A DNA stretch of 64,000 nucleotides from Escherichia coli (GTDB taxonomy: Bacteria > Pseudomonadota > Gammaproteobacteria > Enterobacterales > Enterobacteriaceae): the NCBI RefSeq assembly GCF_041886205.1, contig NZ_CP169030.1. One strand, written 5' to 3'. Below are positions 3,236 to 26,190 of the stretch, piece after piece (position 1 is the first letter of the stretch; each line of letters opens with the position of its first letter). The position numbers and the translations under genes were made by a program. The notes beneath the pieces were generated by a model. That model saw only the letters and a program-made list of their open reading frames with translations, did not search any database and was not told the origin of the DNA.

Positions 3236-3333
3236 ACAGATATCTACAGTAAGCGGTCCTAAACTGTAGGGTATCTTCGAAGATCAGACTATCAGGGAGC
3301 TAAAGCCTATCTTCCGGCGGCAAAAACAGTGGC

Positions 3334-6690: not shown

Positions 6691-7038
6691 TTACACGTCA
6701 TCCCATGATGGCAGCCGGTTAACTTTCCTGCGCCACCAGTGGAAAGAGGCCATGAGCAGTCCGAACAAAAAACCACCCGTGATACTTATAATAATGGCCT
6801 CACCTGCCACCATTCCTGACGGCCTCCAGTAGATAAACCACATTGCACATCCCCAGGAAATGCCCCATAAGCCCCCCGTCAGCACCGTGACCTGCCAGAA
6901 CGGCATAAAGGGTAATGGCGGAAGCCGGATACCCAGCCGCCAGAGAATACGCAGAAGAGGAGGGGCATAATTGCTCCGCCACATCTTTTTGCTGTCCATC
7001 AGGGCAATGGCCCGGGCTTTTTTCTGCTCAAAGGTCAC
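6691..7038 (-). CDS. Small hydrophobic membrane protein (115 aa), function unknown
   Basis: Two or three hydrophobic segments (LPPLPFMPFWQVTVLTGGLWGISWGCAMWFIYW; IIISITGGFLFGLLMASF); located next to the colicin immunity gene. Confidence 0.4.
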   Translation of the reverse strand: MTFEQKKARAIALMDSKKMWRSNYAPPLLRILWRLGIRLPPLPFMPFWQVTVLTGGLWGISWGCAMWFIYWRPSGMVAGEAIIISITGGFLFGLLMASFHWWRRKVNRLPSWDDV

Positions 7039-8810: not shown

Positions 8811-9086
8811 CTACCTGTTTTCTCGTGTGTGCCACAGGCGCAATACATAAATAGTCTGGCCATTAAGTTCGTAACGGATTTCGTACTCGCCAGCAAAAAT
8901 CCGTCTGACCTCCCTGGGTTCAAACTGAAACAACTGTTCTCCCATACGTGGATGAGTTAACAGAATGACCGGTGCCTGTGTCAGGGATTGCACCGTTCTG
9001 GCGGCCGCAGGTTTACTGGCCAGCACCAGAAAATCATATAACCGCGCCAAATCAGAAAGCGCCTTACTGGTCCACTTCAGTTCCAT
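8811..9086 (-). CDS. RelE/ParE-family toxin
   Basis: 91 aa with typical RelE/ParE C-terminal signature; overlaps upstream antitoxin gene by 1 nt. Confidence 0.7.
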   Translation of the reverse strand: MELKWTSKALSDLARLYDFLVLASKPAAARTVQSLTQAPVILLTHPRMGEQLFQFEPREVRRIFAGEYEIRYELNGQTIYVLRLWHTRENR

Positions 9087-9370
9087 CAGCGTGGCACCGG
9101 TAACGGATTGTCAGTACTGAGGCTGTCCGCCCAGGCCTGTACAGCCTGATGGTCGATAACCTGTCCGGATGTCACATCGTCCAGGGCTTCCAGCGTCAGG
9201 CGATTACGCTCCTCCTCCTGGGCAAGCCATGCAGAAAGCGCCTGTTTGATAACCCAGCCCCGGGAGCGTTCCAGCCTGGCGGCCATCTGGTCGACTTTAT
9301 CAGCCATAGGTAATGGCACATGCGCGGTAATGACTTTTGTTGCTTGTGCACTATTGTTTTTCATTTGCAT
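9086..9370 (-). CDS. Antitoxin (RHH/ParD-like) of the RelE/ParE module
   Basis: 94-aa ORF immediately upstream of and overlapping the toxin gene. Confidence 0.6.
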   Translation of the reverse strand: MQMKNNSAQATKVITAHVPLPMADKVDQMAARLERSRGWVIKQALSAWLAQEEERNRLTLEALDDVTSGQVIDHQAVQAWADSLSTDNPLPVPR

Positions 9371-9465
9371 ATCCGATTAGTTGTTAATCATATTTAATCA
9401 TAGTGATTACATTCAGACCGAACAAGGCAAATAATGCGCATCTGCGCATGTAAGGCAGCATACGG

Positions 9466-9520
9466 AGGTTACATGTAACACAGGTGTAAAACCGCCAAAG
9501 CCCGGCGTAAGCCGGTACGG
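9466..9520. repeat. Copy 1 of ~55-bp imperfect direct repeat (GGTTACATGT ... GTAAAACCGCC-AAGCCCGGCGTAAGCCGGTACGG) with internal CCGGC-GTAA-GCCGG hairpin
   Basis: Near-identical sequence recurs at 31651-31707 in the same orientation. Confidence 0.5.
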
Positions 9521-9566
9521 TCGTCCGAATATCACCAGTCCCACTCCGGCCCTGCGAGGCCATGTG

Positions 9567-9604
9567 GGGGGAACCGCAGAATTCGGAAAAAATCGTACGC
9601 TAAG
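9567..9604. repeat. Left 38-bp terminal inverted repeat of the Tn1721-like transposon
   Basis: GGGGGAACCGCAGAATTCGGAAAAAATCGTACGCTAAG. Confidence 0.8.
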
Positions 9605-9755
9605 CTAACGGTGTTCTCGTGACAGCTCTTTGACTAGGCTTTCTAAGGCCATTCTGATAGCCCTGACTTCCTGAAAAGCCATGGCTAAAATTTGTGCGGC
9701 TAAAAGGGATAACCGATGGTAAAGTAAGTTATCCCTGTCGAGATACTGAAAAGCG

Positions 9756-11333
9756 TTATCCTCGTTTTTCCCAAAACTGTTTTGCCAGTTCGCTCAGAGC
9801 GCTAGTTAACTGAGCGACAGATTTCGCACTTTGCAAATTATTCTGCCCGGTCTGTACATTGGTATCAGCAGCATCGCGTATATTGATAATACTGCGGTTT
9901 ATGTCTTCACTTACTGCTCCCTGCTGCTCGACCGCAGTCGCTATTTGCGCGTTCATGTCGGTAATTTCGTTAACGCGTTGGCCAATTCCATCAAGAGCTG
10001 TAGCTGCTTCCTCTGCGTGAGCTACACTCGTGTGCGCTTGCCGACTACTTTGCTCCATGACTGTAACAGCGGATTGCGCTCGCTCTTGTAGAGCGCTGAT
10101 CATGCTTTGAATATCCGTTGTCGATTGCTGTGTGCGAGCAGCAAGACTGCGAACCTCATCGGCGACAACAGCAAAACCACGCCCCTGCTCACCAGCACGC
10201 GCGGCCTCAATTGCTGCGTTGAGTGCCAACAAATTCGTTTGCTCGGCGATCCCTCGTATAACGTCAAGAACTTTTGATATCTCGTTACTTTGACCTTCAA
10301 GCTCATGAATAACCTGAGTGGCTTGCCTAATTTCACCTTCAAGGGCAGTGATTGACTGGCTTGTGTGGGCTACCAGACGCTGGCCAGATGCCGTCTCAGT
10401 GTCTGCTCTTCCGGCCGCATCTGCAGCATGCTGTGCATTGCTCGCAACCTCTTGAATGCTTGCCACCATTTGGTTTACTGCCGTTGCTATTTGATCTGTC
10501 TCTGCCTGCTGCTCAACTGTAAGTACATTGCTTGACTCAATATCCTTTAGTAGGCCTCGGGTGTGTTCGCTAAGCCGATTTGATGCATCACCTATGCGAC
10601 CTACTATGGCGCCTGTTTCAGCTTGCATCATTCGTAAAGCAAACTCTATTTGGCCAAACTCATCGGTGCGCCCAGTGTAGAGGGATTGACTTAATGGGTT
10701 ATTGGAAATATTCTTGGCTCTTTCAACCAGTCTTCCAAGAGGAGAGAGAATAGCCAAAACACTAACAGAGCTTAAGCTTCCTGACATTAAAGTGGCTAAC
10801 AATAAGCTGCTTATTGATGTATCAGTAAGCATGCCGGCAGCCATTGCGCTTGATATAATACTACCCCATATGAGCAAGAGTATTTTCACGGAAAAGCTAG
10901 CAGCCAATTTCGGCCTCGCGGCCTTCCCGCTTCTCAATTGAGCATATAATTTTTCCGCAGCCAAAACCTGCTCAGGTTCAGGCTTGGTCCTTACAGACTG
11001 GTATTCAACAATCGAACCATTCTTAGCTATTGGCGTTACATAAGCACTTACCCAATAGTGGTCGCCATTTTTACAGCGATTTTTTACTAGCCCCATCCAT
11101 GAGCGGCCAGATTTTAATGTACTCCACATATGCTCAAATGCAGCAGGCGGCATATCTGGGTGTCTTACGATGTTGTGAGGCTGGCCTAATAGTTCTTCCT
11201 CAGTGAAACCACTGATTTTAATGAAGTCAGGATTAACGTACGTGATATGGCTTTGAGGGGAGGTAGTCGAAAGAATATTGGCATCTTTTGGGAGTTCTAA
11301 GTTTCGACCCGTCACTGGTAAATTCTGGCGCAT
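9756..11333 (-). CDS. Methyl-accepting chemotaxis protein-like protein with PAS domain (Tn1721 orfI-type cargo)
   Basis: 525 aa; N-terminal PAS-like region, central TM segments, C-terminal MCP signalling domain ([31 protein letters not shown]). Confidence 0.8.
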
Positions 11334-11620
11334 AAGAACCTCAAGGGTTGGCTGTTTTATTTTATTGTTTTCGGCATTAAGCCCAATTTCTTGAGCGTTA
11401 CGATAAAGCTAGCATGGAAACGATAGGTGCAAGCAAGTTAAGGGTTGCATCGCGCATGTCAATCTAGGCTATACCCTAACTTGATGTCAGGCAGGGCCGC
11501 GCCGCTTCGTCAGAATAGAGTCTGCTTTCCCATTTTTTGACACATGCCCGCGAAGGTTATAGATTTCAGCCTGACAGAAATGGGCTTTGAGGCACAACGG
11601 AACAGAAAGTGCACTTAAGC

Positions 11621-11625
11621 CGCCT
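11621..11625. repeat. 5-bp target-site duplication (CGCCT) flanking IRt of the integron
   Basis: CGCCT immediately outside IRt; the same pentamer lies immediately outside the second IRi at 22464-22468. Confidence 0.6.
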
Positions 11626-11650
11626 TGTCATTTTCAGAAGACGACTGCAC
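11626..11650. repeat. IRt (25-bp terminal inverted repeat at tni end of Tn402-like integron)
   Basis: TGTCATTTTCAGAAGACGACTGCAC. Confidence 0.8.
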
Positions 11651-11766
11651 CAGTTGATTGGGCGTAATGGCTGTTGTGCAGCCAGCTCCTGACAGTTCAA
11701 TATCAGAAGTGATCTGCACCAATCTCGACTATGCTCAATACTCGTGTGCACCAAAGCGAGGTGAGC

Positions 11767-13446
11767 ATGGCGACGGACACCCCACGGATTCCAGAACAAG
11801 GCGTGGCCACTCTGCCTGATGAGGCTTGGGAGCGTGCGCGCCGTCGTGCGGAGATCATCAGTCCGTTGGCGCAGTCGGAGACGGTCGGGCACGAAGCGGC
11901 CGATATGGCGGCTCAGGCGCTGGGCTTGTCTCGGCGCCAGGTATACGTTCTGATCCGGCGTGCCCGGCAAGGCAGCGGCCTCGTGACGGATCTGGTGCCC
12001 GGCCAGTCCGGTGGAGGTAAAGGTAAGGGGCGCTTGCCGGAACCGGTCGAGCGCGTCATCCACGAGCTACTGCAAAAGCGGTTCCTGACCAAGCAGAAGC
12101 GCAGCCTAGCGGCCTTTCACCGCGAAGTCACTCAGGTGTGCAAGGCTCAAAAACTGCGAGTGCCGGCGCGCAATACCGTGGCCTTACGGATCGCTAGCCT
12201 TGACCCGCGCAAGGTCATCCGCCGGCGGGAAGGCCAGGATGCCGCTCGTGACCTACAAGGTGTGGGCGGCGAGCCTCCTGCCGTGACCGCGCCGCTGGAG
12301 CAGGTGCAGATAGACCATACGGTCATCGACCTGATCGTGGTCGATGACCGCGACCGGCAACCTATTGGCCGCCCGTACCTGACCCTCGCCATCGACGTGT
12401 TCACCCGCTGCGTGCTCGGCATGGTCGTCACGCTGGAAGCGCCGTCTGCCGTTTCGGTTGGCCTGTGCCTCGTGCATGTCGCCTGCGACAAGCGCCCTTG
12501 GCTGGAAGGACTGAACGTGGAAATGGATTGGCAGATGAGCGGCAAGCCCTTGCTGCTCTACCTAGACAACGCGGCCGAGTTCAAGAGCGAGGCCCTGCGC
12601 CGGGGTTGCGAGCAGCATGGCATCCGGCTGGACTATCGCCCGCTGGGACAGCCGCACTATGGCGGCATCGTGGAACGGATCATCGGCACGGCGATGCAGA
12701 TGATTCACGACGAACTGCCGGGAACGACCTTCTCCAACCCTGACCAGCGCGGCGACTACGATTCCGAAAACAAGGCCGCCCTGACGCTGCGCGAGCTAGA
12801 GCGCTGGCTCACATTGGCGGTCGGCACCTACCACGGTTCGGTGCACAACGGCCTGCTCCAACCGCCGGCCGCGCGCTGGGCCGAGGCCGTGGCGCGTGTC
12901 GGCGTACCGGCCGTCGTCACACGCGCTACTTCGTTCCTGGTCGATTTTCTGCCGATCCTCCGGCGCACGCTGACCCGCACCGGCTTTGTCATCGACCACA
13001 TCCACTACTACGCCGATGCGCTCAAGCCGTGGATTGCGCGGCGTGAACGCTGGCCGTCCTTTCTGATCCGGCGCGATCCGCGCGACATCAGCCGTATCTG
13101 GGTCCTGGAACCGGAGGGACAGCATTACCTGGAAATTCCCTACCGTACCTTGTCGCATCCGGCTGTCACCCTCTGGGAACAACGGCAGGCGCTGGCGAAA
13201 CTGCGGCAGCAAGGGCGCGAACAGGTGGATGAGTCGGCGCTGTTCCGCATGATCGGCCAGATGCGTGAGATTGTGACCAGCGCGCAGAAGGCCACACGCA
13301 AGGCGCGGCGTGACGCGGATCGCCGCCAGCACCTCAAGACATCAGCTCGGCCGGACAAGCCCGTTCCGCCGGATACGGATATTGCCGACCCGCAGGCAGA
13401 CAACTTGCCACCCGCCAAACCGTTCGACCAGATTGAGGAGTGGTAG
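11767..13446 (+). CDS. tniA: TniA transposase (Tn402/Tn5053 family, DDE)
   Basis: 559 aa starting MATDTPRIPEQG; ORF-track start at 11731 is an upstream in-frame Met. Confidence 0.9.
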   Translation: MATDTPRIPEQGVATLPDEAWERARRRAEIISPLAQSETVGHEAADMAAQALGLSRRQVYVLIRRARQGSGLVTDLVPGQSGGGKGKGRLPEPVERVIHELLQKRFLTKQKRSLAAFHREVTQVCKAQKLRVPARNTVALRIASLDPRKVIRRREGQDAARDLQGVGGEPPAVTAPLEQVQIDHTVIDLIVVDDRDRQPIGRPYLTLAIDVFTRCVLGMVVTLEAPSAVSVGLCLVHVACDKRPWLEGLNVEMDWQMSGKPLLLYLDNAAEFKSEALRRGCEQHGIRLDYRPLGQPHYGGIVERIIGTAMQMIHDELPGTTFSNPDQRGDYDSENKAALTLRELERWLTLAVGTYHGSVHNGLLQPPAARWAEAVARVGVPAVVTRATSFLVDFLPILRRTLTRTGFVIDHIHYYADALKPWIARRERWPSFLIRRDPRDISRIWVLEPEGQHYLEIPYRTLSHPAVTLWEQRQALAKLRQQGREQVDESALFRMIGQMREIVTSAQKATRKARRDADRRQHLKTSARPDKPVPPDTDIADPQADNLPPAKPFDQIEEW

Positions 13447-13448
13447 CC

Positions 13449-14357
13449 GTGGACGAATATCCCATCATCGACCTGTCCCACCTGCTGCCGGCGGCCCAGG
13501 GCTTGGCCCGTCTTCCGGCGGACGAGCGCATCCAGCGCCTTCGCGCCGACCGCTGGATCGGCTATCCGCGCGCAGTCGAGGCGCTGAACCGGCTGGAAGC
13601 CCTTTATGCGTGGCCAAACAAGCAACGCATGCCCAACCTGCTGCTGGTTGGCCCGACCAACAATGGCAAGTCGATGATCGTCGAGAAGTTCCGCCGCACC
13701 CACCCGGCCAGCTCCGACGCCGACCAGGAGCACATCCCGGTGTTGGTCGTGCAGATGCCGTCCGAGCCGTCCGTGATCCGCTTCTACGTCGCGCTGCTCG
13801 CCGCGATGGGCGCGCCGCTGCGCCCACGCCCACGGTTGCCGGAAATGGAGCAACTGGCTCTGGCACTGCTGCGCAAGGTCGGCGTGCGCATGCTGGTGAT
13901 CGACGAGCTGCACAACGTGCTGGCCGGCAACAGCGTCAACCGCCGGGAATTCCTCAACCTGCTGCGCTTCCTCGGCAACGAACTGCGCATCCCGTTGGTT
14001 GGGGTAGGCACGCGCGACGCCTACCTAGCCATCCGCTCCGATGACCAGTTGGAAAATCGCTTCGAGCCGATGATGCTGCCGGTATGGGAGGCCAACGACG
14101 ATTGCTGCTCACTGCTGGCCAGCTTCGCCGCTTCGCTCCCGCTGCGCCGGCCTTCCCCAATTGCCACGCTGGACATGGCTCGCTACCTGCTCACACGCAG
14201 CGAGGGCACCATAGGGGAACTGGCGCACTTGCTGATGGCGGCGGCCATCGTCGCCGTGGAGAGCGGCGAGGAAGCGATCAACCATCGCACACTCAGCATG
14301 GCCGTTTACACCGGACCCAGCGAGCGGCGGCGGCAATTCGAGCGGGAACTGATGTGA
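13449..14357 (+). CDS. tniB: TniB NTP-binding transposition protein
   Basis: Walker A VGPTNNGKS, probable GTG start at 13449 giving MDEYPIIDL. Confidence 0.85.
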   Translation: MDEYPIIDLSHLLPAAQGLARLPADERIQRLRADRWIGYPRAVEALNRLEALYAWPNKQRMPNLLLVGPTNNGKSMIVEKFRRTHPASSDADQEHIPVLVVQMPSEPSVIRFYVALLAAMGAPLRPRPRLPEMEQLALALLRKVGVRMLVIDELHNVLAGNSVNRREFLNLLRFLGNELRIPLVGVGTRDAYLAIRSDDQLENRFEPMMLPVWEANDDCCSLLASFAASLPLRRPSPIATLDMARYLLTRSEGTIGELAHLLMAAAIVAVESGEEAINHRTLSMAVYTGPSERRRQFERELM

Positions 14358-15571
14358 AGCCTGCGCCGCGCTGGCCGCTGCATCCCGCCCCGAAAGAAGG
14401 CGAGGCGCTGTCCTCATGGCTCAACCGCGTGGCCCTTTGCTATCACATGGAGGAGCCCGACCTGCTGGAGCACGATCTTGGTCACGGCCAGGTCGATGAC
14501 CTGGACACCGCGCCACCACTCTCGCTGCTGGCGTTGCTTTCCCAGCGGAGCGGCATCGAGCTGGACCGGCTGCGCTGTATGAGTTTCGCCGGATGGGTGC
14601 CTTGGCTACTGGACAGCCTTGATGACCAGATTCCAGACGCCTTGGAAACCTATGCGTTTCAGCTCTCGGTGTTGCTGCCAAGACTCCGCCGTAAGACGCG
14701 ATCCATCACGAGCTGGCGTGCCTGGCTGCCCAGCCAGCCGATAAACCGCGCCTGTCCGCTCTGCCTGAGCGATCCGGAGAACCAAGCCGTACTGCTCGCG
14801 TGGAAGCTGCCCCTGATGCTGAGCTGCCCGCTGCATGGCTGCTGGCTGGAATCCTATTGGGGCGTGCCAGGGCGGTTTCTCGGCTGGGAGAACGCCGACG
14901 CCGAACCGCGCACCGCCAGCGACGCGATTGCGGCGATGGACCAGCGTACCTGGCAGGCACTGACAACCGGTCACGTGGAGCTGCCGCGCCGACGCATCCA
15001 CGCCGGATTGTGGTTTCGACTTCTTCGCACGCTGCTCGATGAGCTGAACACCCCGCTTTCCGCGTGCGGAACCTGCGCGGGGTATCCCCGCCAAGTCTGG
15101 GAAGGCTGCGGGCATCCGCTGCGTGCTGGGCAAAGTCTGTGGCGACCGTATGAAACCCTGAATCCGATAGTACGGTTACAGATGCTGGAGGCGGCGGCAA
15201 CGGCAATCAGCTTGATTGAGGTGAGGGACATCAGCCCGCCAGGCGAGCAGGCAAAGCTATTCTGGTCCGAGCCCCAAACCGGGTTCACCAGTGGCCTGCC
15301 GACGAAAGCGCCGAAGCCCGAGCCCATCAATCACTGGCAGCGTGCAGTCCAGGCCATCGACGAGGCCATCATTGAAGCGCGACACAACCCCGAGACGGCA
15401 CGCTCGCTGTTCGCGTTGGCTTCCTATGGTCGGCGCGATCCCGCTTCCTTGGAACGGTTGCGCGCCACCTTCGTGAAGGAAGGCATCCCGCCGGAATTTC
15501 TGTCACATTACCTGCCTGATGCACCCTTTGCATGTCTTAAACAAAATGACGGGTTAAGTGACAAATTTTGA
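14354..15571 (+). CDS. tniQ: TniQ transposition protein
   Basis: 405-aa frame starting at GTG overlapping tniB stop (VKPAPRWPLHPAPKEGEALSSWLNR); the ORF-track entry 14084-15571 is an upstream extension of this frame. Confidence 0.8.
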   Translation: MKPAPRWPLHPAPKEGEALSSWLNRVALCYHMEEPDLLEHDLGHGQVDDLDTAPPLSLLALLSQRSGIELDRLRCMSFAGWVPWLLDSLDDQIPDALETYAFQLSVLLPRLRRKTRSITSWRAWLPSQPINRACPLCLSDPENQAVLLAWKLPLMLSCPLHGCWLESYWGVPGRFLGWENADAEPRTASDAIAAMDQRTWQALTTGHVELPRRRIHAGLWFRLLRTLLDELNTPLSACGTCAGYPRQVWEGCGHPLRAGQSLWRPYETLNPIVRLQMLEAAATAISLIEVRDISPPGEQAKLFWSEPQTGFTSGLPTKAPKPEPINHWQRAVQAIDEAIIEARHNPETARSLFALASYGRRDPASLERLRATFVKEGIPPEFLSHYLPDAPFACLKQNDGLSDKF

Positions 15572-15617
15572 CGGATAGAGCTTTCCGGCTCACACTGTCA
15601 CATAATCGAACGTATAC

Positions 15618-16256
15618 GTGACGGGTGAAAAGGTGCTGATCGGCTACATGCGGGTATCGAAGGCGGACGGATCCCAGTCCACCAATTTGCAACGCGATGC
15701 GCTCATCGCCGCTGGTGTGAGCCTTGCGCACCTTTACGAGGATCTGGCCTCGGGCAGGCGCGATGATCGCCCAGGGTTGGCTGCTTGCCTGAAGGCGCTT
15801 CGTGAAGGGGACACGCTGATCGTGTGGAAGCTCGATCGGCTTGGCCGTGATCTGCGCCACCTGATCAACACCGTGCACGACCTAACTGCGCGTAGCGTGG
15901 GCCTGAAGGTCCTGACCGGTCACGGTGCGGCGGTCGACACGACGACTGCCGCCGGCAAGCTTGTGTTCGGTATTTTTGCCGCGCTGGCCGAGTTCGAGCG
16001 TGAGTTGATTTCCGAGCGAACAGTCGCTGGACTTATCTCGGCGCGCGCTCGCGGCAGGAAAGGGGGGCGCCCCTTCAAGATGACCGCCGCCAAGCTACGC
16101 CTGGCGATGGCCAGCATGGGGCAACCGGAAACCAAGGTGGGCGATCTCTGCGAAGAACTCGGGATTACCCGGCAGACGCTCTACCGGCACGTGTCGCCCA
16201 AGGGCGAACTGCGGCCAGACGGCGTAAAGCTGCTCTCCCTCGGTTCAGCCGCATAA
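15618..16256 (+). CDS. tniR: TniR/TniC serine resolvase of Tn402-like element
   Basis: Serine recombinase motifs (IGYMRVSKADGSQ; C-terminal HTH); exact start uncertain. Confidence 0.8.
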   Translation: MTGEKVLIGYMRVSKADGSQSTNLQRDALIAAGVSLAHLYEDLASGRRDDRPGLAACLKALREGDTLIVWKLDRLGRDLRHLINTVHDLTARSVGLKVLTGHGAAVDTTTAAGKLVFGIFAALAEFERELISERTVAGLISARARGRKGGRPFKMTAAKLRLAMASMGQPETKVGDLCEELGITRQTLYRHVSPKGELRPDGVKLLSLGSAA

Positions 16257-16353
16257 ATGGAGGCGACCTGGAACGGGGCGCTGTTCAGTGCGGCAACGAT
16301 CCGATTACCGGTGTCGACCCAGAGCAGCCGTAGAGCTTTTGGGAAAGCTGTCG

Positions 16354-16448
16354 TTCAACGTTTGACGTGAGGGGCCGCCGTAGCGGCGAAGCCGCGAAGG
16401 GAACCCGCAAGCGCAGCTTGTGGGCGGTCCCTCTCGACGGAATGGTTA
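16354..16448 (-). other. Probable attC recombination site of the qac gene cassette
   Basis: Minus-strand inverse core ATCTAAC (plus 16441-16448) and core GTTGAAC (plus 16354-16360) bracket ~95 bp downstream of the qac stop; boundaries approximate. Confidence 0.4.
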
Positions 16449-16460
16449 GATGCGACCGTT

Positions 16461-16793
16461 TTAGTGAACACTTGCCTTAGATAGCAAGTTGAGCACAGCA
16501 ACGCCGCTGATAATGAAGCCGACACCAACAAATCCCCACATATCTAGTTTTTGACCATGCAAAACCCATGCAATCGCAGTGACCAAGACGATCCCGAGGC
16601 CCGACCAAACTGCGTAGGCGATTCCAACAGGAATCGATTTGAGTGTCAGCGACAGGAAATAAAAAGCAGCAGCGTATCCCGCTACGACGATAAAAGACGG
16701 TACTAACCTAGTAAAGCCCTCACTAGACTTGAGCGCAGAGGTTGCAATGACCTCAAAAATAATGGCCGTAGCCAGAAATAACCAATTTTTCAA
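16461..16793 (-). CDS. Small multidrug resistance (SMR) quaternary ammonium compound efflux protein, qacH/qacL-type gene cassette
   Basis: 110-aa frame [27 protein letters not shown]... with probable TTG start; the ORF-track entry 16461-17102 is an artefactual upstream extension through attI1. Confidence 0.75.
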
Positions 16794-16888
16794 AATATTT
16801 CTCCATGGAGTTCCGCGAAGAAATTTTAGGTTCGATTTAAGAAAAAAAACAGTCTTGTTGCTGGCCGAAATTTGTGCGCACAGCAAAG

Positions 16889-16965
16889 CATCTAACTTTG
16901 TTTTAGGGCGACTGCCCTGCTGCGTAACATCGTTGCTGCTCCATAACATCAAACATCGACCCACG
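16889..16965. other. attI1 site (copy 1) with cassette junction GTTAGATGC on minus strand
   Basis: Sequence CCCTAAAACAAAGTTAGATGC (minus strand) directly upstream of intI1; boundaries approximate. Confidence 0.6.
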
Positions 16966-17031
16966 GCGTAACGCGCTTGCTGCTTGGATGCCCGAGGCAT
17001 AGACTGTACAAAAAAACAGTCATAACAAGCC

Positions 17032-18045
17032 ATGAAAACCGCCACTGCGCCGTTACCACCGCTGCGTTCGGTCAAGGTTCTGGACCAGTTGCGTGAGCGC
17101 ATACGCTACTTGCATTACAGTTTACGAACCGAACAGGCTTATGTCCACTGGGTTCGTGCCTTCATCCGTTTCCACGGTGTGCGTCACCCGGCAACCTTGG
17201 GCAGCAGCGAAGTCGAGGCATTTCTGTCCTGGCTGGCGAACGAGCGCAAGGTTTCGGTCTCCACGCATCGTCAGGCATTGGCGGCCTTGCTGTTCTTCTA
17301 CGGCAAGGTGCTGTGCACGGATCTGCCCTGGCTTCAGGAGATCGGAAGACCTCGGCCGTCGCGGCGCTTGCCGGTGGTGCTGACCCCGGATGAAGTGGTT
17401 CGCATCCTCGGTTTTCTGGAAGGCGAGCATCGTTTGTTCGCCCAGCTTCTGTATGGAACGGGCATGCGGATCAGTGAGGGTTTGCAACTGCGGGTCAAGG
17501 ATCTGGATTTCGATCACGGCACGATCATCGTGCGGGAGGGCAAGGGCTCCAAGGATCGGGCCTTGATGTTACCCGAGAGCTTGGCACCCAGCCTGCGCGA
17601 GCAGCTGTCGCGTGCACGGGCATGGTGGCTGAAGGACCAGGCCGAGGGCCGCAGCGGCGTTGCGCTTCCCGACGCCCTTGAGCGGAAGTATCCGCGCGCC
17701 GGGCATTCCTGGCCGTGGTTCTGGGTTTTTGCGCAGCACACGCATTCGACCGATCCACGGAGCGGTGTCGTGCGTCGCCATCACATGTATGACCAGACCT
17801 TTCAGCGCGCCTTCAAACGTGCCGTAGAACAAGCAGGCATCACGAAGCCCGCCACACCGCACACCCTCCGCCACTCGTTCGCGACGGCCTTGCTCCGCAG
17901 CGGTTACGACATTCGAACCGTGCAGGATCTGCTCGGCCATTCCGACGTCTCTACGACGATGATTTACACGCATGTGCTGAAAGTTGGCGGTGCCGGAGTG
18001 CGCTCACCGCTTGATGCGCTGCCGCCCCTCACTAGTGAGAGGTAG
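17032..18045 (+). CDS. intI1: Class 1 integron integrase IntI1 (copy 1)
   Basis: 337-aa tyrosine recombinase [49 protein letters not shown]... Confidence 0.95.
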
Positions 18046-18222
18046 GGCAGCGCAAGTCAATCCTGGCGGATTCACTACCCCTGCGCGAAGGCCATCGGTG
18101 CCGCATCGAACGGCCGGTTGCGGAAAGTCCTCCCTGCGTCCGCTGATGGCCGGCAGCAGCCCGTCGTTGCCTGATGGATCCAACCCCTCCGCTGCTATAG
18201 TGCAGTCGGCTTCTGACGTTCA

Positions 18223-18247
18223 GTGCAGCCGTCTTCTGAAAACGACA
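18223..18247. repeat. IRi (25-bp inverted repeat at intI1 end), copy 1, internal
   Basis: GTGCAGCCGTCTTCTGAAAACGACA; followed by TTTGA rather than the CGCCT seen outside IRt. Confidence 0.8.
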
Positions 18248-18329
18248 TTTGAACCGGGAACCTTCCCTTTTTGGCTAGGCGTGAAACAATGGTCATTTTC
18301 CCTATACCCAAAATGACCAGGAGGCCCGC

Positions 18330-18428
18330 ATGAAAGTCGCACGCATCTACCTGCGCGTGAGCACGGAGGAACAAGACCTAAGCCGGCAGGATGCCATCGT
18401 GGAGAGCTTAAATAAGACCGTCCCGTAA
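18330..18428 (+). pseudogene. Serine recombinase (resolvase) N-terminal fragment, truncated after ~27 codons by the 88-bp repeat
   Basis: MKVARIYLRVSTEEQDLSRQDAIVES matches the catalytic-serine N-terminus of resolvases; frame then runs into repeat sequence and stops. Confidence 0.5.
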
Positions 18429-18495
18429 ATTTCAGCCGAATCCGACAAAAAGGCGTGAAGATTTCCTTTAAATAGAGAGACCGAAGGTCATCCTT
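18408..18495. repeat. 88-bp direct repeat, copy A, flanking the tet(M) segment
   Basis: TTAAATAAGACCGTCCCGTAAATTTCAGCCGAATCCGACAAAAAGGCGTGAAGATTTCCTTTAAATAGAGAGACCGAAGGTCATCCTT, identical at 20999-21086. Confidence 0.85.
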
Positions 18496-18648
18496 TTCCT
18501 AAAAAAGGGGGGGGCCATGGTTCCAAGATGTAAAATCGAGGGCTAATTCAGGCTATACTTGAACTATCCTTAATGGAATCTTTAGCCAGCGGTATCAACG
18601 AAGCAAGAAACATCGAAGACTAATTAAAAGAATCCATACATAACGGAA

Positions 18649-18693
18649 AGAGCCGATAAAATGAGATTGTATTAATCTCATTTTATCGGCTCT
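18649..18693. terminator. Long perfect hairpin (19-bp stem) at the 3' end of the small ORF downstream of tet(M)
   Basis: AGAGCCGATAAAATGAGATT-gtat-TAATCTCATTTTATCGGCTCT. Confidence 0.45.
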
Positions 18694-18850
18694 GCGTCTT
18701 TGCGTCTGGCTCTGTAATCGCAGTTACTTTGAACTGCTTTATTTCAATTAAATTTTCTTGTCTGCATTTCGGACAATAGAGGGGGAATTTTTTTAATTCA
18801 GTATCTTCCCTTATCTTTAATCGTGTTTTATTTCCACATACAGGACACAA
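18683..18850 (-). CDS. Small Cys-rich zinc-ribbon-like protein (~55 aa), Tn916 orf6-like, downstream of tet(M)
   Basis: Minus-strand frame CPVCGNKTRLKIREDTELKKFPLYCPKCRQENLIEIKQFKVTAITEPDAKTQSR with TTG/GTG start; below ORF-track length cutoff. Confidence 0.4.
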   Translation of the reverse strand: MCPVCGNKTRLKIREDTELKKFPLYCPKCRQENLIEIKQFKVTAITEPDAKTQSR

Positions 18851-18968
18851 TATCCACTTGTAGTTTATAATAACTATCTCCTCCTTTACACTTTAATTCA
18901 AATCTTTATTAAAAAATATTTCATCTTATTTAACAAGAAACCATATTTATATAACAACATAAAATACA

Positions 18969-20888
18969 CTAAGTTATTTTATTGAACATATATCGTACTT
19001 TATCTATCCGACTATTTGGACGACGGGGCTGGCAAACAGGTTCACCGGTAGTAACATGGTACCCTTTTAACTCTGTTAAACAAACACTACGTCCATTTGT
19101 AAAGAAAGTTAAATCACTACGATATTCTTGAATACACCGAGCAGGGATTTCTCCACTAAGAATGACCTCATTATTTTTCAATTGAGTGTCTACGATGTTC
19201 GCACAATATTTAGGAGCATCGTTGTATGCTCGTGAAAGATATTCCTGTGGCGCATAAATTTTAAAACTAAGATATGGCTCTAACAATTCTGTTCCAGCTT
19301 TTTTTAAGACTTGTTCCAATACAATAGGAGCAAGCATCCGAAAATCTGCTGGGGTACTAACAGGGCTATAGTATAAGCCATACTTAAAACAGATTTTACA
19401 GTCCGTCACATTCCAACCATACAATCCTTGTTCACAGCCATAGCGTATCCCTTCCATAACTGCATTTTGAAATGATTGATTTAAGTATCCAAGAGAAACC
19501 GAGCTCTCATACTGCATTCCACTTCCCAACGGAAGCGGTGATACAGATAAACCAATGGAAGCCCAGAAAGGATTTGGCGGCACTTCGATGTGAATGGTAT
19601 ATTCTGCATTTTTTAACGGTCTCTCCATATAAATGACTGTAGGCTCTTTTAGTTCTATCTCCACATGATACTTTTCTTGCAACAGTGCACTAATCACTTC
19701 CATTTGTACTTTCCCTAAGAAAGAAAGTATAATTTCATGTGTCGTAGAATCCACGTAATATCGTAGAAGCGGATCACTATCTGAGATTTCCAAAAGGGCA
19801 TCAAGCAACATTTCTCTCTGTTCAGGTTTACTCGGTTCAACAGTTGTTTGTAGTAGAGGGTGCGGATTTTCAATCTTTTTTCTCTGTGGCAATAGTTTTG
19901 TATCTCCAAGAACACTATTTAACTTCAAAAACTCATTTTGCAAAATAACAATTTCCCCGGAATAAGCCTTATCGATTTTACATAATTCACCATTTATTGA
20001 AGTATACATTTCTGTAATTTTTATTTTTTCCTTTTCCGATATTCTAACCGAATCTCGCAAATGCAGTACGCCACTATAAAGACGTATATATGCAAGACGT
20101 TGTCTTTTTTTTGTATATTCAATTTTGAAAACATTTCCGCAAAGTTCAGACTGACCTCGATGTGTTGATGAATAAAATTTATTCGTAATCACTTCTATAA
20201 GGTTATCAATCCCTATATTGTTTTTTGCACTTCCATGATAAAGAGGGAACAGAGAACAATTCTGAAATCTTATGCTTTCCTCTTGTTCGAGTTCCAATGC
20301 TTCTAATGATTTACCGGACATATATTTCTCTAAAAGGTCATCGTTTCCCTCTATTACCGTATCCCATTGTTCAGATTCGGTAAAGTTCGTCACACACATA
20401 TTAGGATACAGTTCTACCTTCTGTTTGATTACAATTTCGGCAGAAAGTTTCTCTTTAATATCCTGATAAACCGTTGATAAATCAATTCCATTTTGGTCAA
20501 TCTTATTGATAAAAAAGATTGTGGGAATCCCCATTTTCCTAAGTGCATGAAATAATATACGAGTTTGTGCTTGTACGCCATCTTTTGCAGAAATCAGTAG
20601 AATTGCCCCATCTAAAACTGATAATGAACGATATACTTCTGCTAAGAAATCCATATGTCCTGGCGTGTCTATGATGTTCACCTTCGTATTTTCCCACTGA
20701 AAAGAGGTTATTCCTGTCTGAATTGTAATTCCTCTCTGACGTTCTAAAAGCGTATTATCCGTCCTCGTTGTACCTTTGTCCACGCTTCCTAATTCTGTAA
20801 TCGCTCCACTGTTATATAATAAGCTTTCTGTTAAGGTAGTTTTTCCCGCATCAACATGAGCTAAAACTCCAATATTAATAATTTTCAT
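18969..20888 (-). CDS. tet(M): Tetracycline resistance ribosomal protection protein Tet(M)
   Basis: 639 aa starting [30 protein letters not shown] (translational GTPase motifs); the ORF-track frame begins 5 codons upstream. Confidence 0.95.
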
Positions 20889-20903
20889 GTGATTTTCCTC
20901 CAT

Positions 20904-20990
20904 TCAAAAGCCCAAAAGGGCATAAAAATCCCAGTGATAAATACTCTTATCACTGGGATTTTTATGCATAACCATAGGCATACAAAGCAT
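20904..20990 (-). CDS. tet(M) leader peptide (28 aa) of the transcriptional attenuator
   Basis: MLCMPMVMHKNPSDKSIYHWDFYALLGF immediately upstream of tet(M), as in Tn916. Confidence 0.7.
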   Translation of the reverse strand: MLCMPMVMHKNPSDKSIYHWDFYALLGF

Positions 20991-20998
20991 ACAGATAT

Positions 20999-21086
20999 TT
21001 AAATAAGACCGTCCCGTAAATTTCAGCCGAATCCGACAAAAAGGCGTGAAGATTTCCTTTAAATAGAGAGACCGAAGGTCATCCTT
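20999..21086. repeat. 88-bp direct repeat, copy B, flanking the tet(M) segment
   Basis: Identical to 18408-18495, same orientation. Confidence 0.85.
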
Positions 21087-21134
21087 GAAGAAGGAGTCCT
21101 CGGTGAGATTCAGAATGCCGAACACCGTCACCCT
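21087..21134 (-). pseudogene. sul1: sul1 5' fragment (codons ~2-17 only), joined on one side to the 88-bp repeat and on the other to truncated attI1
   Basis: Minus strand reads (V)TVFGILNLTEDSFF, the N-terminus of Sul1 dihydropteroate synthase, lacking its ATG and everything after codon ~17. Confidence 0.7.
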
Positions 21135-21200
21135 GCTGCGTAACATCGTTGCTGCTCCATAACATCAAACATCGACCCACGGCGTAACGCGCTTGCTGCT
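21133..21200. other. attI1 (copy 2), truncated: lacks the GTTAGATGC crossover end
   Basis: Sequence identical to copy 1 from CCCTGCTGCGTAACATCG onward, but the cassette-proximal ~25 bp are replaced by the sul1 fragment. Confidence 0.6.
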
Positions 21201-21247
21201 TGGATGCCCGAGGCATAGACTGTACAAAAAAACAGTCATAACAAGCC

Positions 21248-22261
21248 ATGAAAACCGCCACTGCGCCGTTACCACCGCTGCGTTCGGTCAAGGTTCTGGA
21301 CCAGTTGCGTGAGCGCATACGCTACTTGCATTACAGCTTACGAACCGAACAGGCTTATGTCCACTGGGTTCGTGCCTTCATCCGTTTCCACGGTGTGCGT
21401 CACCCGGCAACCTTGGGCAGCAGCGAAGTCGAGGCATTTCTGTCCTGGCTGGCGAACGAGCGCAAGGTTTCGGTCTCCACGCATCGTCAGGCATTGGCGG
21501 CCTTGCTGTTCTTCTACGGCAAGGTGCTGTGCACGGATCTGCCCTGGCTTCAGGAGATCGGAAGACCTCGGCCGTCGCGGCGCTTGCCGGTGGTGCTGAC
21601 CCCGGATGAAGTGGTTCGCATCCTCGGTTTTCTGGAAGGCGAGCATCGTTTGTTCGCCCAGCTTCTGTATGGAACGGGCATGCGGATCAGTGAGGGTTTG
21701 CAACTGCGGGTCAAGGATCTGGATTTCGATCACGGCACGATCATCGTGCGGGAGGGCAAGGGCTCCAAGGATCGGGCCTTGATGTTACCCGAGAGCTTGG
21801 CACCCAGCCTGCGCGAGCAGCTGTCGCGTGCACGGGCATGGTGGCTGAAGGACCAGGCCGAGGGCCGCAGCGGCGTTGCGCTTCCCGACGCCCTTGAGCG
21901 GAAGTATCCGCGCGCCGGGCATTCCTGGCCGTGGTTCTGGGTTTTTGCGCAGCACACGCATTCGACCGATCCACGGAGCGGTGTCGTGCGTCGCCATCAC
22001 ATGTATGACCAGACCTTTCAGCGCGCCTTCAAACGTGCCGTAGAACAAGCAGGCATCACGAAGCCCGCCACACCGCACACCCTCCGCCACTCGTTCGCGA
22101 CGGCCTTGCTCCGCAGCGGTTACGACATTCGAACCGTGCAGGATCTGCTCGGCCATTCCGACGTCTCTACGACGATGATTTACACGCATGTGCTGAAAGT
22201 TGGCGGTGCCGGAGTGCGCTCACCGCTTGATGCGCTGCCGCCCCTCACTAGTGAGAGGTAG
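21248..22261 (+). CDS. intI1: Class 1 integron integrase IntI1 (copy 2, identical protein)
   Basis: Identical 337-aa translation to copy 1; one silent nucleotide difference noted. Confidence 0.95.
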
Positions 22262-22438
22262 GGCAGCGCAAGTCAATCCTGGCGGATTCACTACCCCTGC
22301 GCGAAGGCCATCGGTGCCGCATCGAACGGCCGGTTGCGGAAAGTCCTCCCTGCGTCCGCTGATGGCCGGCAGCAGCCCGTCGTTGCCTGATGGATCCAAC
22401 CCCTCCGCTGCTATAGTGCAGTCGGCTTCTGACGTTCA

Positions 22439-22463
22439 GTGCAGCCGTCTTCTGAAAACGACA
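22439..22463. repeat. IRi, copy 2 (outer end of integron), followed by CGCCT target duplication
   Basis: GTGCAGCCGTCTTCTGAAAACGACA then CGCCT at 22464-22468. Confidence 0.8.
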
Positions 22464-22485
22464 CGCCTTCAACCAAGGAGACATC

Positions 22486-23046
22486 GTGCAGGGGCACCGC
22501 ATCGGCTACGTCCGGGTCAGCAGCTTTGACCAGAACCCGGAACGCCAGCTGGAACAAACCCAGGTGAGCAAGGTGTTCACCGACAAGGCATCGGGCAAGG
22601 ACACCCAGCGCCCCCAGCTCGAAGCGCTGCTGAGCTTCGTCCGCGAAGGCGATACAGTGGTGGTGCACAGCATGGATCGGCTGGCCCGCAACCTCGATGA
22701 CCTGCGTCGCTTGGTACAGAAGCTGACTCAGCGCGGCGTGCGCATCGAGTTCCTGAAGGAGGGCCTGGTGTTCACTGGCGAGGACTCGCCGATGGCCAAC
22801 CTGATGCTGTCGGTGATGGGGGCCTTCGCTGAGTTCGAGCGCGCCCTGATCCGCGAGCGGCAGCGTGAGGGCATCGCCTTGGCCAAGCAGCGTGGCGCGT
22901 ACCGGGGCCGCAAGAAAGCCCTGTCCGATGAGCAGGCTGCTACCCTGCGGCAGCGAGCGACGGCCGGCGAGCCCAAGGCGCAGCTTGCCCGCGAGTTCAA
23001 CATCAGCCGGGAAACCCTCTACCAGTACCTCCGCACGGACGACTGA
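22486..23046 (+). CDS. tnpR: TnpR resolvase (Tn21/Tn1721 subfamily)
   Basis: 186-aa serine recombinase MQGHRIGYVRVSSFDQNPERQ... Confidence 0.9.
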   Translation: MQGHRIGYVRVSSFDQNPERQLEQTQVSKVFTDKASGKDTQRPQLEALLSFVREGDTVVVHSMDRLARNLDDLRRLVQKLTQRGVRIEFLKEGLVFTGEDSPMANLMLSVMGAFAEFERALIRERQREGIALAKQRGAYRGRKKALSDEQAATLRQRATAGEPKAQLAREFNISRETLYQYLRTDD

Positions 23047-23049
23047 CAC

Positions 23050-26016
23050 ATGCCGCGTCGCTTGATCCTCTCGGCCACGGAGCGGGACACCCTGCTTGCG
23101 CTGCCGGAAAGCCAGGATGACCTGATCCGCTACTACACCTTCAACGACTCCGACCTGTCGCTGATCCGCCAGCGACGCGGCGACGCCAACCGCCTCGGCT
23201 TCGCCGTGCAGCTCTGCCTGCTGCGCTACCCCGGTTACGCGCTGGGAACCGACAGCGAGCTGCCCGAGCCGGTCATCCTGTGGGTGGCGAAGCAAGTCCA
23301 GGCCGAGCCGGCGAGCTGGGCAAAGTACGGCGAGCGCGACGTGACCCGTCGCGAGCATGCCCAGGAACTGCGCACCTACCTGCAACTGGCCCCGTTCGGC
23401 CTGTCCGACTTCCGCGCCCTGGTGCGCGAGCTAACCGAGCTGGCCCAGCAGACCGACAAAGGCTTGCTGCTGGCCGGTCAGGCCCTGGAGAGCCTACGGC
23501 AGAAACGACGCATCCTGCCGGCGCTGAGCGTGATTGACCGGGCCTGCTCGGAAGCCATTGCGCGAGCCAATCGGCGGGTCTACCGCGCCCTGGTCGAACC
23601 ACTCACGGACTCGCATCGGGCCAAGCTGGACGAGCTGTTGAAGCTCAAGGCCGGCAGCAGCATCACCTGGTTGACCTGGCTGCGCCAGGCACCGCTGAAA
23701 CCCAACTCTCGGCACATGCTGGAACACATCGAGCGGCTGAAGACATTTCAGTTGGTGGACTTGCCCGAAGGCCTGGGCCGGCACATCCACCAGAACCGCC
23801 TGCTCAAGCTGGCCCGCGAGGGTGGGCAGATGACGCCCAAAGACCTCGGTAAGTTCGAGCCGCAGCGCCGCTACGCGACCCTGGCCGCCGTGGTGCTGGA
23901 GAGCACCGCGACCGTGATCGATGAGCTGGTCGATCTGCATGACCGCATCCTGGTCAAGCTGTTCAGCGGCGCGAAGCACAAGCATCAGCAGCAGTTCCAG
24001 AAGCAGGGCAAGGCGATCAACGACAAGGTGCGCCTGTACTCCAGGATCGGCCAGGCGCTGCTGGAAGCGAAGGAAAGCGGCAGCGACCCCTATGCCGCCA
24101 TCGAGGCGGTGATTCCCTGGGACGAGTTCACCGAGAGCGTCAGCGAGGCCGAGCTGCTGGCCCGGCCGGAAGGCTTCGACCACCTGCACCTGGTCGGCGA
24201 GAACTTCGCCACCCTGCGCCGTTACACGCCGGCCTTGCTGGAGGTGCTGGAACTGCGCGCCGCGCCGGCCGCGCAAGGCGTGCTGGCAGCCGTGCAGACC
24301 CTGCGTGAGATGAACGCCGACAACCTGCGCAAGGTGCCGGCCGATGCACCCACGGCCTTCATCAAGCCGCGCTGGAAGCCGCTGGTGATCACCCCGGAAG
24401 GCCTCGACCGGAAATTCTACGAAATCTGCGCCCTGTCCGAGCTGAAGAACGCCCTGCGCTCCGGCGACATCTGGGTCAAGGGCTCGCGGCAGTTCCGCGA
24501 CTTCGACGACTACCTGCTGCCGGCCGAGAAGTTCGCCGCACTCAAGCGCGAGCAGGCCCTGCCCCTGGCGATCAACCCGAACAGCGACCAGTACCTGGAA
24601 GAGCGTTTGCAGCTGCTGGACGAGCAGTTGGCCACCGTCACCCGCCTGGCCAAGGACAACGAGCTGCCCGATGCCATCCTCACCGAGTCAGGGCTGAAAA
24701 TCACCCCGCTGGATGCGGCGGTGCCGGATCGGGCGCAGGCGCTGATCGACCAAACCAGCCAGTTACTGCCGCGCATCAAGATCACCGAACTGCTGATGGA
24801 CGTGGACGACTGGACGGGCTTCAGCCGCCACTTCACCCACTTGAAGGACGGGGCCGAGGCCAAAGACAGGACGTTGCTGCTGTCCGCAATCCTCGGTGAT
24901 GCGATCAACCTCGGGCTGACCAAGATGGCCGAGTCGAGCCCCGGCCTGACCTACGCCAAGCTGTCCTGGCTGCAAGCCTGGCACATCCGCGACGAAACCT
25001 ATTCGGCGGCCTTGGCCGAGCTGGTCAACCACCAGTATCGCCACGCCTTTGCCGCCCACTGGGGCGACGGCACGACCTCATCCTCCGATGGCCAGCGCTT
25101 CCGCGCGGGTGGCCGGGGCGAGAGCACCGGGCACGTCAACCCGAAGTACGGTAGCGAGCCGGGACGGCTGTTCTATACCCATATCTCCGACCAGTACGCG
25201 CCGTTCAGCACCCGCGTGGTGAATGTCGGCGTCCGCGATTCCACCTATGTGCTCGACGGCCTGCTGTACCACGAGTCCGACCTGCGGATCGAGGAGCACT
25301 ACACCGACACGGCCGGCTTCACCGATCACGTCTTTGCCCTGATGCACCTGCTAGGCTTCCGCTTCGCGCCGCGCATCCGCGACCTCGGCGAAACCAAGCT
25401 GTACGTGCCGCAGGGCGTGCAAGCCTACCCGACGTTGCGCCCGCTGATCGGCGGCACCCTGAACATCAAGCACGTGCGTGCCCACTGGGACGACATCCTG
25501 CGCCTGGCCAGCTCGATCAAGCAGGGCACCGTCACCGCCTCGCTGATGCTGCGCAAGCTCGGCAGCTACCCGCGCCAGAACGGACTGGCCGTGGCCCTGC
25601 GCGAGCTGGGCCGGATCGAGCGCACGCTGTTCATCCTGGACTGGCTGCAAAGTGTTGAACTGCGCCGCCGCGTGCATGCCGGCCTGAACAAAGGTGAGGC
25701 GCGCAACTCGCTGGCCAGGGCGGTGTTCTTCAACCGCCTTGGGGAAATCAGGGATCGGAGCTTCGAGCAGCAGCGCTACCGGGCCAGCGGCCTCAACCTG
25801 GTGACGGCGGCTATCGTGCTGTGGAACACGGTGTACCTGGAACGCGCCACCCAGGGGTTGGTCGAGGCCGGCAAGCCGGTGGACGGCGAGCTGCTGCAAT
25901 TCCTGTCGCCGCTGGGCTGGGAGCACATCAACCTAACCGGCGATTACGTCTGGCGGCAGAGCCGCAGACTGGAAGACGGGAAGTTTCGGCCCTTACGGAT
26001 GCCCGGAAAACCTTAG
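23050..26016 (+). CDS. tnpA: TnpA transposase (Tn3 family, Tn21/Tn1721 subfamily)
   Basis: 988-aa ORF ending inside the terminal inverted repeat. Confidence 0.9.
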
Positions 26017-26049
26017 CGTACGATTTTTTCCGAATTCTGCGGGCTCCCC
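26012..26049. repeat. Right 38-bp terminal inverted repeat of the Tn1721-like transposon
   Basis: Reverse complement reads GGGGAGCCCGCAGAATTCGGAAAAAATCGTACGCTAAG. Confidence 0.8.
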
Positions 26050-26190
26050 TTGTTTGTACGATTCGATATCGATACTGCGTAATGGCCGGTACTTCCCTGT
26101 ACCCAGCTTAAGATTATTACGCCAGACATCATCCCCATTAAGATTGATATGCTCCCAGCCCAACGGCGAAAGGTGAGTGCAGTTGGTCAT
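26050..26190 (-). pseudogene. 3' remnant of a second Tn3-family tnpA, inverted and abutting the outer end of the transposon IR
   Basis: Minus-strand translation [31 protein letters not shown] parallels the TnpA C-terminus [31 protein letters not shown]. Confidence 0.5.

Follow-up and report, generated by a model that had tools for sequence, protein, structure and literature searches.

Organization of the integron region

The window analyzed here is a stretch of 64,000 nucleotides from Escherichia coli (contig NZ_CP169030.1 of assembly GCF_041886205.1), in which three terminal repeats of the Tn402 type, one of the IRt type and two of the IRi type, where chance would yield none, delimit a composite of tni genes, class 1 integron segments and a tet(M) gene (Table 1). 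The segment that reaches from part of attI1 through intI1 to IRi, hereafter the 5'-conserved segment or 5'-CS, is present as two direct copies that lie 4,216 bp apart and differ at a single synonymous position (T at 17121, C at 21337). Between the two copies lie, in order, a 160-bp stretch ending in a truncated parA gene (ΔparA), a 153-bp sequence designated X, a tet(M) gene of the Tn916 type, the second copy of an 88-bp repeat and an inverted Δsul1. The fusion of Δsul1 (about 45 bp) to attI1 corresponds, by comparison with plasmid pHH3408, to a deletion of 470 bp comprising qacEΔ1 and most of attI1, with a 2-bp overlap (21087-21132). Because this deletion has removed qacEΔ1 and most of attI1, the second integron copy is probably unable to capture cassettes.

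Table 1. Features of the composite integron region and their positions in the window
Feature	Position	Strand	Remarks
IRt-type 25-bp repeat, outer Tn402-like transposon	11626-11650	+	CGCCT before it, 11621-11625
tniA-tniB-tniQ-tniR	11731-16256	+	ORFs and annotation of the 99.99%-identical stretch of JML285_P2
qacG2 cassette	about 16461-16790	-	After the tni module
5'-CS, copy 1	16915-18247	+	Part of attI1, intI1 (17032-18045), IRi
Inner IRi	18223-18247	-	Exact canonical match
TTTGA, relic of target-site duplication	18248-18252	+	Both integron ends in pHH3408; contig L010
IncP-1ε traC-parA intergenic DNA, 82 bp	18248-18329	+	With inverted repeat and AGGAGG
ΔparA, codons 1-26 of IncP-1ε ParA	18330-18407	+	With YLRVSTEEQ catalytic-serine motif
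88-bp direct repeat, copy 1	18408-18495	+	Cuts parA
Tn916-type cysteine-rich KTR ORF	18683-18850		Downstream of tet(M)
tet(M)	18969-20903	-	Leader region upstream
88-bp direct repeat, copy 2	20999-21086	+	
Δsul1, roughly first 15 codons	21087-21130	-	Fused to truncated attI1
5'-CS, copy 2	21131-22463	+	intI1 (21248-22261); ends in outer IRi (22439-22463, exact)
CGCCT, target-site duplication of outer transposon	22464-22468	+	Empty site in pFBAOT6
Tn1721-type tnpR	22486-23046		GTG start at 22486, 22 bp after CGCCT

From its IRt to the outer IRi, the composite is flanked on both sides by CGCCT and lies in the res/tnpR region of Tn1721, and the uninterrupted Tn1721 target is present as an empty site in pFBAOT6. 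The only IRt in the window carries CGCCT and pairs with the outer IRi, and no IRt with a TTTGA duplication occurs within the window. The joint between the outer IRi and tnpR was established with a 2.2-kb query and direct reading, as short megablast queries merge separate IRi and tnpR pieces. Reading this junction as a 504-bp deletion of Tn21 tnpM-res conflicts with the duplicated CGCCT and with the empty site known from Tn1721, and was rejected. The outer element is thus a res-region insertion in its own right, independent of the relic at the inner IRi described below; its Tn1721-type tnpR is unrelated to the parA stub of that relic at the DNA level. Counted from one CGCCT to the other (11621-22468), the composite amounts to a 10.8-kb Tn402-like transposon in which tniA, tniB, tniQ and tniR are apparently intact, with tnpR beyond one end and mcp/orfI on the other side. 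The tni module could in principle use either IRi, which would yield nested transposons with or without tet(M).

The E. coli plasmid JML285_P2 is 99.994% identical to the window over positions 8900-26050, and the window lacks its tetR(A)–tet(A)–EamA segment (24261-26050 in the window, against 15362-22639). The pattern of the alignment suggests that this segment was lost when tnpA recombined with a second, partial tnpA copy in Tn1721, in which case this stretch would have no tetracycline determinant other than tet(M).

A truncated resolvase gene beside the inner IRi

The 25-bp inner IRi is an exact match to the canonical TGTCGTTTTCAGAAGACGGCTGCAC, for which 0 chance matches are expected, and the first base outside it is 18248. 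The 160 bp that follow (18248-18407) consist of 82 bp of upstream DNA and codons 1-26 of a gene for a serine recombinase, with an AGGAGG (18319-18324) located 5 nt 5' of the ATG at 18330. The corresponding ORF (18330-18428) encodes 32 amino acids, MKVARIYLRVSTEEQDLSRQDAIVES followed by LNKTVP and a stop. It is chimeric, since codons 1-26 derive from the resolvase and the last six codons and the stop are supplied by the 88-bp repeat, which cuts parA at 18407/18408, exactly after codon 26. A preliminary description of this DNA had placed the start of a resolvase gene directly against the IRi and had the gene cut by the 88-bp repeat after some 27 codons; the stub, its ribosome-binding site and the cut by the repeat are borne out, with the corrections that the gene starts 82 bp away from the IRi and that 26 codons are kept.

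Against the Pfam Resolvase profile (PF00239), the 32-residue product aligns at positions 3-25 with E=0.0025 and 18.4 bits, a score below the cut-off of 23.3 for what is a very short fragment, and the stub is assigned to the resolvases because it shows 100% DNA identity to a full-length gene. Its YLRVSTEEQ conforms to the catalytic-serine motif Y-x-R-V-S-T-x-x-Q. The stub spans about 23 of the 145 positions of the catalytic-domain profile, 26 of the 210 ParA codons are left in the window and the HTH_7 domain is absent from it, all of which indicates a gene fragment that encodes no functional recombinase. Upstream of the stub lies a 10-bp perfect inverted repeat (18290-18299 and 18310-18319), which is poorly conserved in pAKD16 and in IncP-1β plasmids; its candidacy as a ParA operator or res subsite was dropped for this reason.

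Origin of the fragment in IncP-1ε parA

Over all its 160 bp, the fragment matches the DNA between traC and parA, and parA itself, of pHH3408 at 100% identity; this plasmid was sequenced as a member of IncP-1ε by Heuer et al. (2012; PMC3260659). The identity extends to both sides of an ISPa17-like insertion in that plasmid, with matching segments at window positions 18248-18360 and 18356-18407. A metagenome contig (L010) is 100% identical over the whole fragment. Identity falls to about 90% in pAKD16 (95.5% over a 66-bp coding stretch) and to about 82% in the parA of IncP-1β plasmids such as pBP136 and pJP4. In a nucleotide search with the coding part, several "uncultured bacterium" and Thauera/E. 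coli plasmids also showed 100% identity from 18356 onward; the matches are genes annotated as parA, resolvase or "recombinase family protein," and the plasmids are IncP where their typing was read. The full-length ParA homologue of the metagenome contig (L010:184-816) is a protein of 210 amino acids in which Pfam detects both Resolvase (70.2 bits) and HTH_7, and in this contig, as in pHH3408, parA is followed by the IncP-1ε backbone (upf30.5, trbP onward). No IncP-1 backbone adjoining the fragment (traC, upf30.5/trb) was found within the window. The fragment is hence derived from the IncP-1ε parA locus and is no resident copy of it, and the donor backbone that the preliminary description expected plasmid databases to reveal is identified by the full match to pHH3408.

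The Tn402-like integron of pHH3408 is bounded by TTTGA at both ends (...gccaaTTTGA/IRt at one, IRi/TTTGAaccggg at the other), and the same 5 bp open the flank in the window, which therefore preserves the original transposition junction. Beyond its ISPa17-like element, the parA of pHH3408 matches window positions 18356-18407 and then continues as ...ACGAAGGCGG where the window enters the 88-bp repeat. Comparison with IncP-1β indicates that the ε parA has the same ribosome-binding site and ATG without the N-terminal extension of about 80 codons. As the ε gene does not have this extension, the integron sits upstream of the parA start, whereas Heuer et al. (2012; PMC3260659) placed both insertions in the 5' part of the IncP-1ε parA.

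Elements with Tn402-type ends have inserted independently several times within about 180 bp around the start of parA. The integron at the TTTGA site lies 82 bp upstream of it; in pAKD16 (2880-2910), an IRt is located 1 bp from the TTTGA site; in a further metagenome contig (L009, JACDJC010000598.1, 9430-9520), the backbone of which is IncP-1ε at 99.5% identity, an IRi lies 61 bp further upstream, among three GAGATCCAC repeats; and the ISPa17-like element has inserted in parA codons 9-11. The reconstructed empty site reads ...gagatccac repeats...gccaaTTTGAaccggg.... Insertions grouped in this way are a known hallmark of the Tn5053/Tn402 res-site hunters. The parA-resIncP region of RP1-type plasmids has been described as a target of Tn5053/Tn402 elements (PMC7765201). 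From the clustering of the insertions and the published behavior of the family, we infer that res was targeted here as well, and that the inner relic is the footprint of a res-site hunter, where "in res" stands for the intergenic DNA immediately upstream of the resolvase gene.

Distribution of the flank and the ISPa17-like insertion

The IRi with its flank occurs in 213 PLSDB plasmids. In about 195 of these the match stops after 112–114 bp, and only 18 continue past 114 bp, all of them tet(M) plasmids with the junction to the 88-bp repeat; their hosts are E. coli or Salmonella, in most cases isolated from livestock or food. Of the complete genomes of E. coli, 5,426 in number, 32 contain the flank, always plasmid-borne, with the short form in 26 plasmids and the tet(M) junction in six. 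The continuation of the short form was read base by base in two plasmids, pFBAOT6 (IncU) and pHH3408, and in both it is the IRt-like repeat of an ISPa17-like element; another variant has IS26 after 113 bp of flank. In pHH3408, the ISPa17-like element has Tn402-like 25-bp repeats at its ends and a CGTGA duplication. Its distance to the IRi is 114 bp in pFBAOT6 (4108-4140) and 112 bp in pHH3408 (6846-6880), and the junctions read ...gcgtgagc/tgtca... and ...gcgtga/tgtca..., respectively, which suggests either that parA codons 9-11 were hit by two independent insertions at sites differing by 2 bp or that an end has been rearranged.

The window crosses the ISPa17 site (18360-18362) unbroken as ...gcgcgtgagcacggaggaac..., where pHH3408 and pFBAOT6 switch to tgtcattttcagaagacgactgcac, and its parA runs on for 45–47 bp beyond the insertion point. 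Because parA is unbroken through this site, the relic does not come from the common ISPa17-bearing lineage. A metagenome scan for the flank joined to an uninterrupted parA past codon 26 retrieved the contig L010, in which the IRi is located at the identical base, parA is intact and the backbone matches pHH3408 at 100% over 2 kb; this donor-type configuration is absent from PLSDB. The relic can hence be placed, on sequence grounds, in an ISPa17-free branch of IncP-1ε plasmids such as the one represented by this contig. The contig leaves the pHH3408 backbone after 2,071 bp, in the trbP region, and its divergent part (2888-4623) has a minus-strand ORF of 529 amino acids, possibly another insertion.

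The tet(M) block in different plasmids

The 88-bp repeat is the start of sequence X (18408-18560). Apart from the 18 tet(M) plasmids, the one plasmid in PLSDB with this repeat, in a single copy, is pABF9692, a tet(X) plasmid of Acinetobacter baumannii in which the homology covers window positions 18408 to 18560 (pABF9692 6001-6152). In that plasmid, from a duck isolate, the X copy follows, at a distance of about 350 bp, a tet(X)–estT unit next to ISVsa3. The possibility that the 88-bp repeat forms part of a common insertion sequence was rejected on the basis of this restricted occurrence. Microhomology at the joints between ΔparA and X and between the second copy of the repeat (X') and Δsul1 does not exceed 1 bp, and no insertion sequence is present at either.

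The 2,883-bp block spanning ΔparA, tet(M) and Δsul1 (18248-21130) is 100% identical, with 0 mismatches, in the four of the 18 tet(M) plasmids that were compared base by base. These are JML285_P2 (IncF), with the same context as the window and a Tn1721 flank opening with CGCCT; p15-0756.1 (IncHI2), with an aadA12–lnu(F) array and its outer IRi in a Tn21-type tnpM (ATGGAGG...); pJMA2 (IncHI2), with a dfrA1–aadA1–qacL array and the same tnpM flank; and pF18S022 (IncC), with an aadB–aadA2–cmlA6 array and its IRi beside a different Tn3-family tnpR (CCATGTG...). An identical block is thus combined with three kinds of outer flank and four kinds of cassette array, which is consistent with its having spread through homologous recombination in the 5'-CS. 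The nucleotide that distinguishes the two 5'-CS copies is T/C (copy 1/copy 2) in one of the four plasmids, C/T in two and T/T in one, and pHH3408 has C. Such a mosaic would be expected if a unit with the C allele had recombined with integrons carrying the T allele at differing crossover points, but gene conversion could yield the patterns as well, following one acquisition and a later exchange of flanks. No recombinase or insertion sequence is associated with the block. A literature search, including accession numbers, found no dissection of this tet(M)–integron module, "tet(M)" being unsearchable with its parentheses.

Discussion

The evidence presented here is best accommodated by a history that we regard as very probable as a whole, in which a fossil of an IncP-1ε parA locus has been carried along by the recombination of a tet(M) unit. 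In this history, a Tn402-like class 1 integron transposed just upstream of parA on an IncP-1ε plasmid, the usual target of a res-site hunter, and positions 18248-18407 are a non-functional fossil of its IRi-side junction. Illegitimate recombination would then have linked a piece of this plasmid, which started at about codon 16 of sul1, included the deleted attI1, intI1 and IRi and stopped at codon 26 of parA, to a tet(M) segment derived from Tn916 and enclosed by the 88-bp repeats. The foreign block ends in sul1 on one side and in the IRi–parA junction on the other, so that one kind of IncP-1ε integron region accounts for both of its ends. The resulting unit of 4,216 bp would comprise one 1,333-bp copy of the 5'-CS and the 2,883-bp ΔparA–X–tet(M)–X'–Δsul1 block, and would enter other class 1 integrons through homologous recombination in the 5'-CS, possibly as a circle, after which the IRi–ΔparA relic lies enclosed by 5'-CS copies in direct orientation. 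The recipient in this case would have been a complete Tn402-like transposon, with tniABQR and qacG2, in the res/tnpR region of Tn1721.

The sequences themselves show what the fragment is, that the targets were duplicated, that a donor-type configuration exists and that the block stays constant in different contexts, and from this we infer the recombination route and any circular intermediate, integration of the 4.2-kb unit through the 5'-CS, possibly in circular form, presenting itself as the simplest route. The immediate donor may have been other than an IncP-1ε plasmid, given that IncU, IncF and other replicons have acquired pieces comprising IRi and a portion of parA. The preliminary description had proposed that the donor integron once occupied the res site of a different plasmid or transposon resolvase, and that the composite has two sources. 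The former proposal can be narrowed to an IncP-1ε plasmid, not a transposon, and, as to the site, to the intergenic DNA immediately upstream of the gene; the latter is supported by an outer IRi that has its own CGCCT in Tn1721 and an inner block that is identical despite differing outer flanks.

Other origins of the flank can be envisaged. The lineage in which an IRi is followed by some 113 bp of ΔparA and then ISPa17, as in pFBAOT6 and pKJK5, is by far the commonest form (about 195 PLSDB plasmids, and 26 plasmids in the E. coli genome set) and is already present in many clinical plasmids, and a derivation from it would dispense with any ISPa17-free ancestor. Such a derivation is nevertheless very improbable: the 45–47 bp of parA beyond the insertion point are 100% identical to the far side in pHH3408, the window bears no trace of the terminal repeat or of a duplicated CGTGA, precise excision is not expected for an element of this kind, and the ISPa17-free configuration does exist in the metagenome contig. 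Even less credence can be given to the stub being the tnpR of a Tn3-family transposon, as for In4 in Tn1696, and not a plasmid multimer-resolution gene. Res sites of transposons often harbor class 1 integrons, as the outer IRi of the window exemplifies, and the 26-residue peptide is 60–76% identical to many "recombinase family" genes, but the 100% nucleotide matches are to parA or "recombinase family protein" genes on plasmids typed as IncP where this was read, IncP-1ε backbone follows the gene in both the metagenome contig and pHH3408, and the Tn1721-type tnpR of the window shares no DNA relationship with it.

It is likewise conceivable, if only at a slim chance, that the two 5'-CS copies arose in place, by duplication or by transposition into a resident resolvase gene, with no second source. 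The complete tniABQR of the window could move DNA bounded by IRt and IRi, and a single nucleotide separates the two copies; the remainder of parA is, however, absent downstream, the sole IRt belongs with the outer IRi through its CGCCT and none has TTTGA, and what separates the copies is foreign DNA (from IncP-1ε, with a tet(M) of the Tn916 type and sul1) that is identical in plasmids with other flanks. A role for the relic itself, either as a functional small gene of 32 codons or through co-option of the parA promoter/operator, for instance for transcription into the tet(M) module, would be in keeping with the good ribosome-binding site, the ATG, the perfect 10-bp palindrome and the 100% conservation of the stub in 18 plasmids. 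We deem such a role extremely unlikely, as the stub retains some 23 of 145 catalytic-profile positions and no HTH, tet(M) is on the opposite strand, so that read-through would be antisense, pAKD16 and IncP-1β have not conserved the palindrome, and the conservation of the stub is explained by a recent common ancestor of the entire 2.9-kb block, in which 0 mismatches are seen.

The IncP-1ε fossil within a recombining tet(M) unit, as favored here, leaves the current understanding of these elements unchanged, and the relic is an ordinary scar of a known kind of mobile element: res-site hunting by the Tn402 family and the parA hot spot of IncP-1ε plasmids have already been published, and the IRi–parA junction is in the literature. 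What the present analysis adds is the ISPa17-free branch, the presence of the relic inside a conserved tet(M) block in several integrons, and the outer Tn402-like transposon in Tn1721. The relic points to a tet(M) module built on, or from, an IncP-1ε plasmid of a branch that never received ISPa17, and provides a lineage marker for this module, which is now present in E. coli and Salmonella from livestock and humans on plasmids of the IncF, IncHI2 and IncC groups. The relic is also an illustration of the way in which tet(M) of Gram-positive type came to class 1 integrons and can move between them without a dedicated recombinase. IncP-1ε is a plasmid group typical of manure and soil. On a bolder reading, to which we assign somewhat less than an even chance, the 4.2-kb unit would be an undescribed hitch-hiking module, built on an ISPa17-free IncP-1ε plasmid from such environments and moving tet(M) among class 1 integrons of Enterobacteriaceae that are otherwise unrelated, with homologous recombination, perhaps of a circle, as its sole means and with the 5'-CS of the integron serving as homology that the unit carries along.

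Several known systems invite comparison. The integrons In4 in Tn1696 and In2 in Tn21, together with those in Tn1721, are established cases of res-site hunters. The targeting logic of such Tn5053/Tn402 insertions in transposon res regions would apply to both insertions discussed here, and the outer IRi is one more case of them; the inner relic differs in that its target was a plasmid multimer-resolution locus, parA, rather than a transposon tnpR/res, and in that it has since been detached from that target. The IncP-1ε plasmids pKJK5, pHH3408, pHH3414, pHH128 and pKS77 (PMC3260659) have the same IRi, insertion base, TTTGA, 112-bp flank and further parA sequence as the window. They carry the ISPa17-like element in parA codons 9-11 and have kept the rest of parA and the backbone, whereas in the window there is no ISPa17, parA ends at codon 26 against the repeat of the tet(M) module and the backbone is absent. 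The IRi–ΔparA–ISPa17 signature seen in IncU pFBAOT6 and other non-IncP-1 plasmids is likewise a hitch-hiking IncP-1ε relic with the same IRi junction and first 112–114 bp, but it ends at ISPa17, or at IS26 in the 113-bp variant, whereas the relic in the window is longer and unbroken.

Lastly, translocatable units and "unconventional circularizable structures" are resistance segments bounded by direct repeats that form circles and integrate by homology. The tet(M) block resembles them in that its resistance gene lies between direct repeats, of 88 bp and, in the 5'-CS, of 1,333 bp, and in that it is identical across recipients. It departs from them in that its circle is postulated and in that, with no IS26 or other recombinase involved, the homology is provided by the integron 5'-CS itself.
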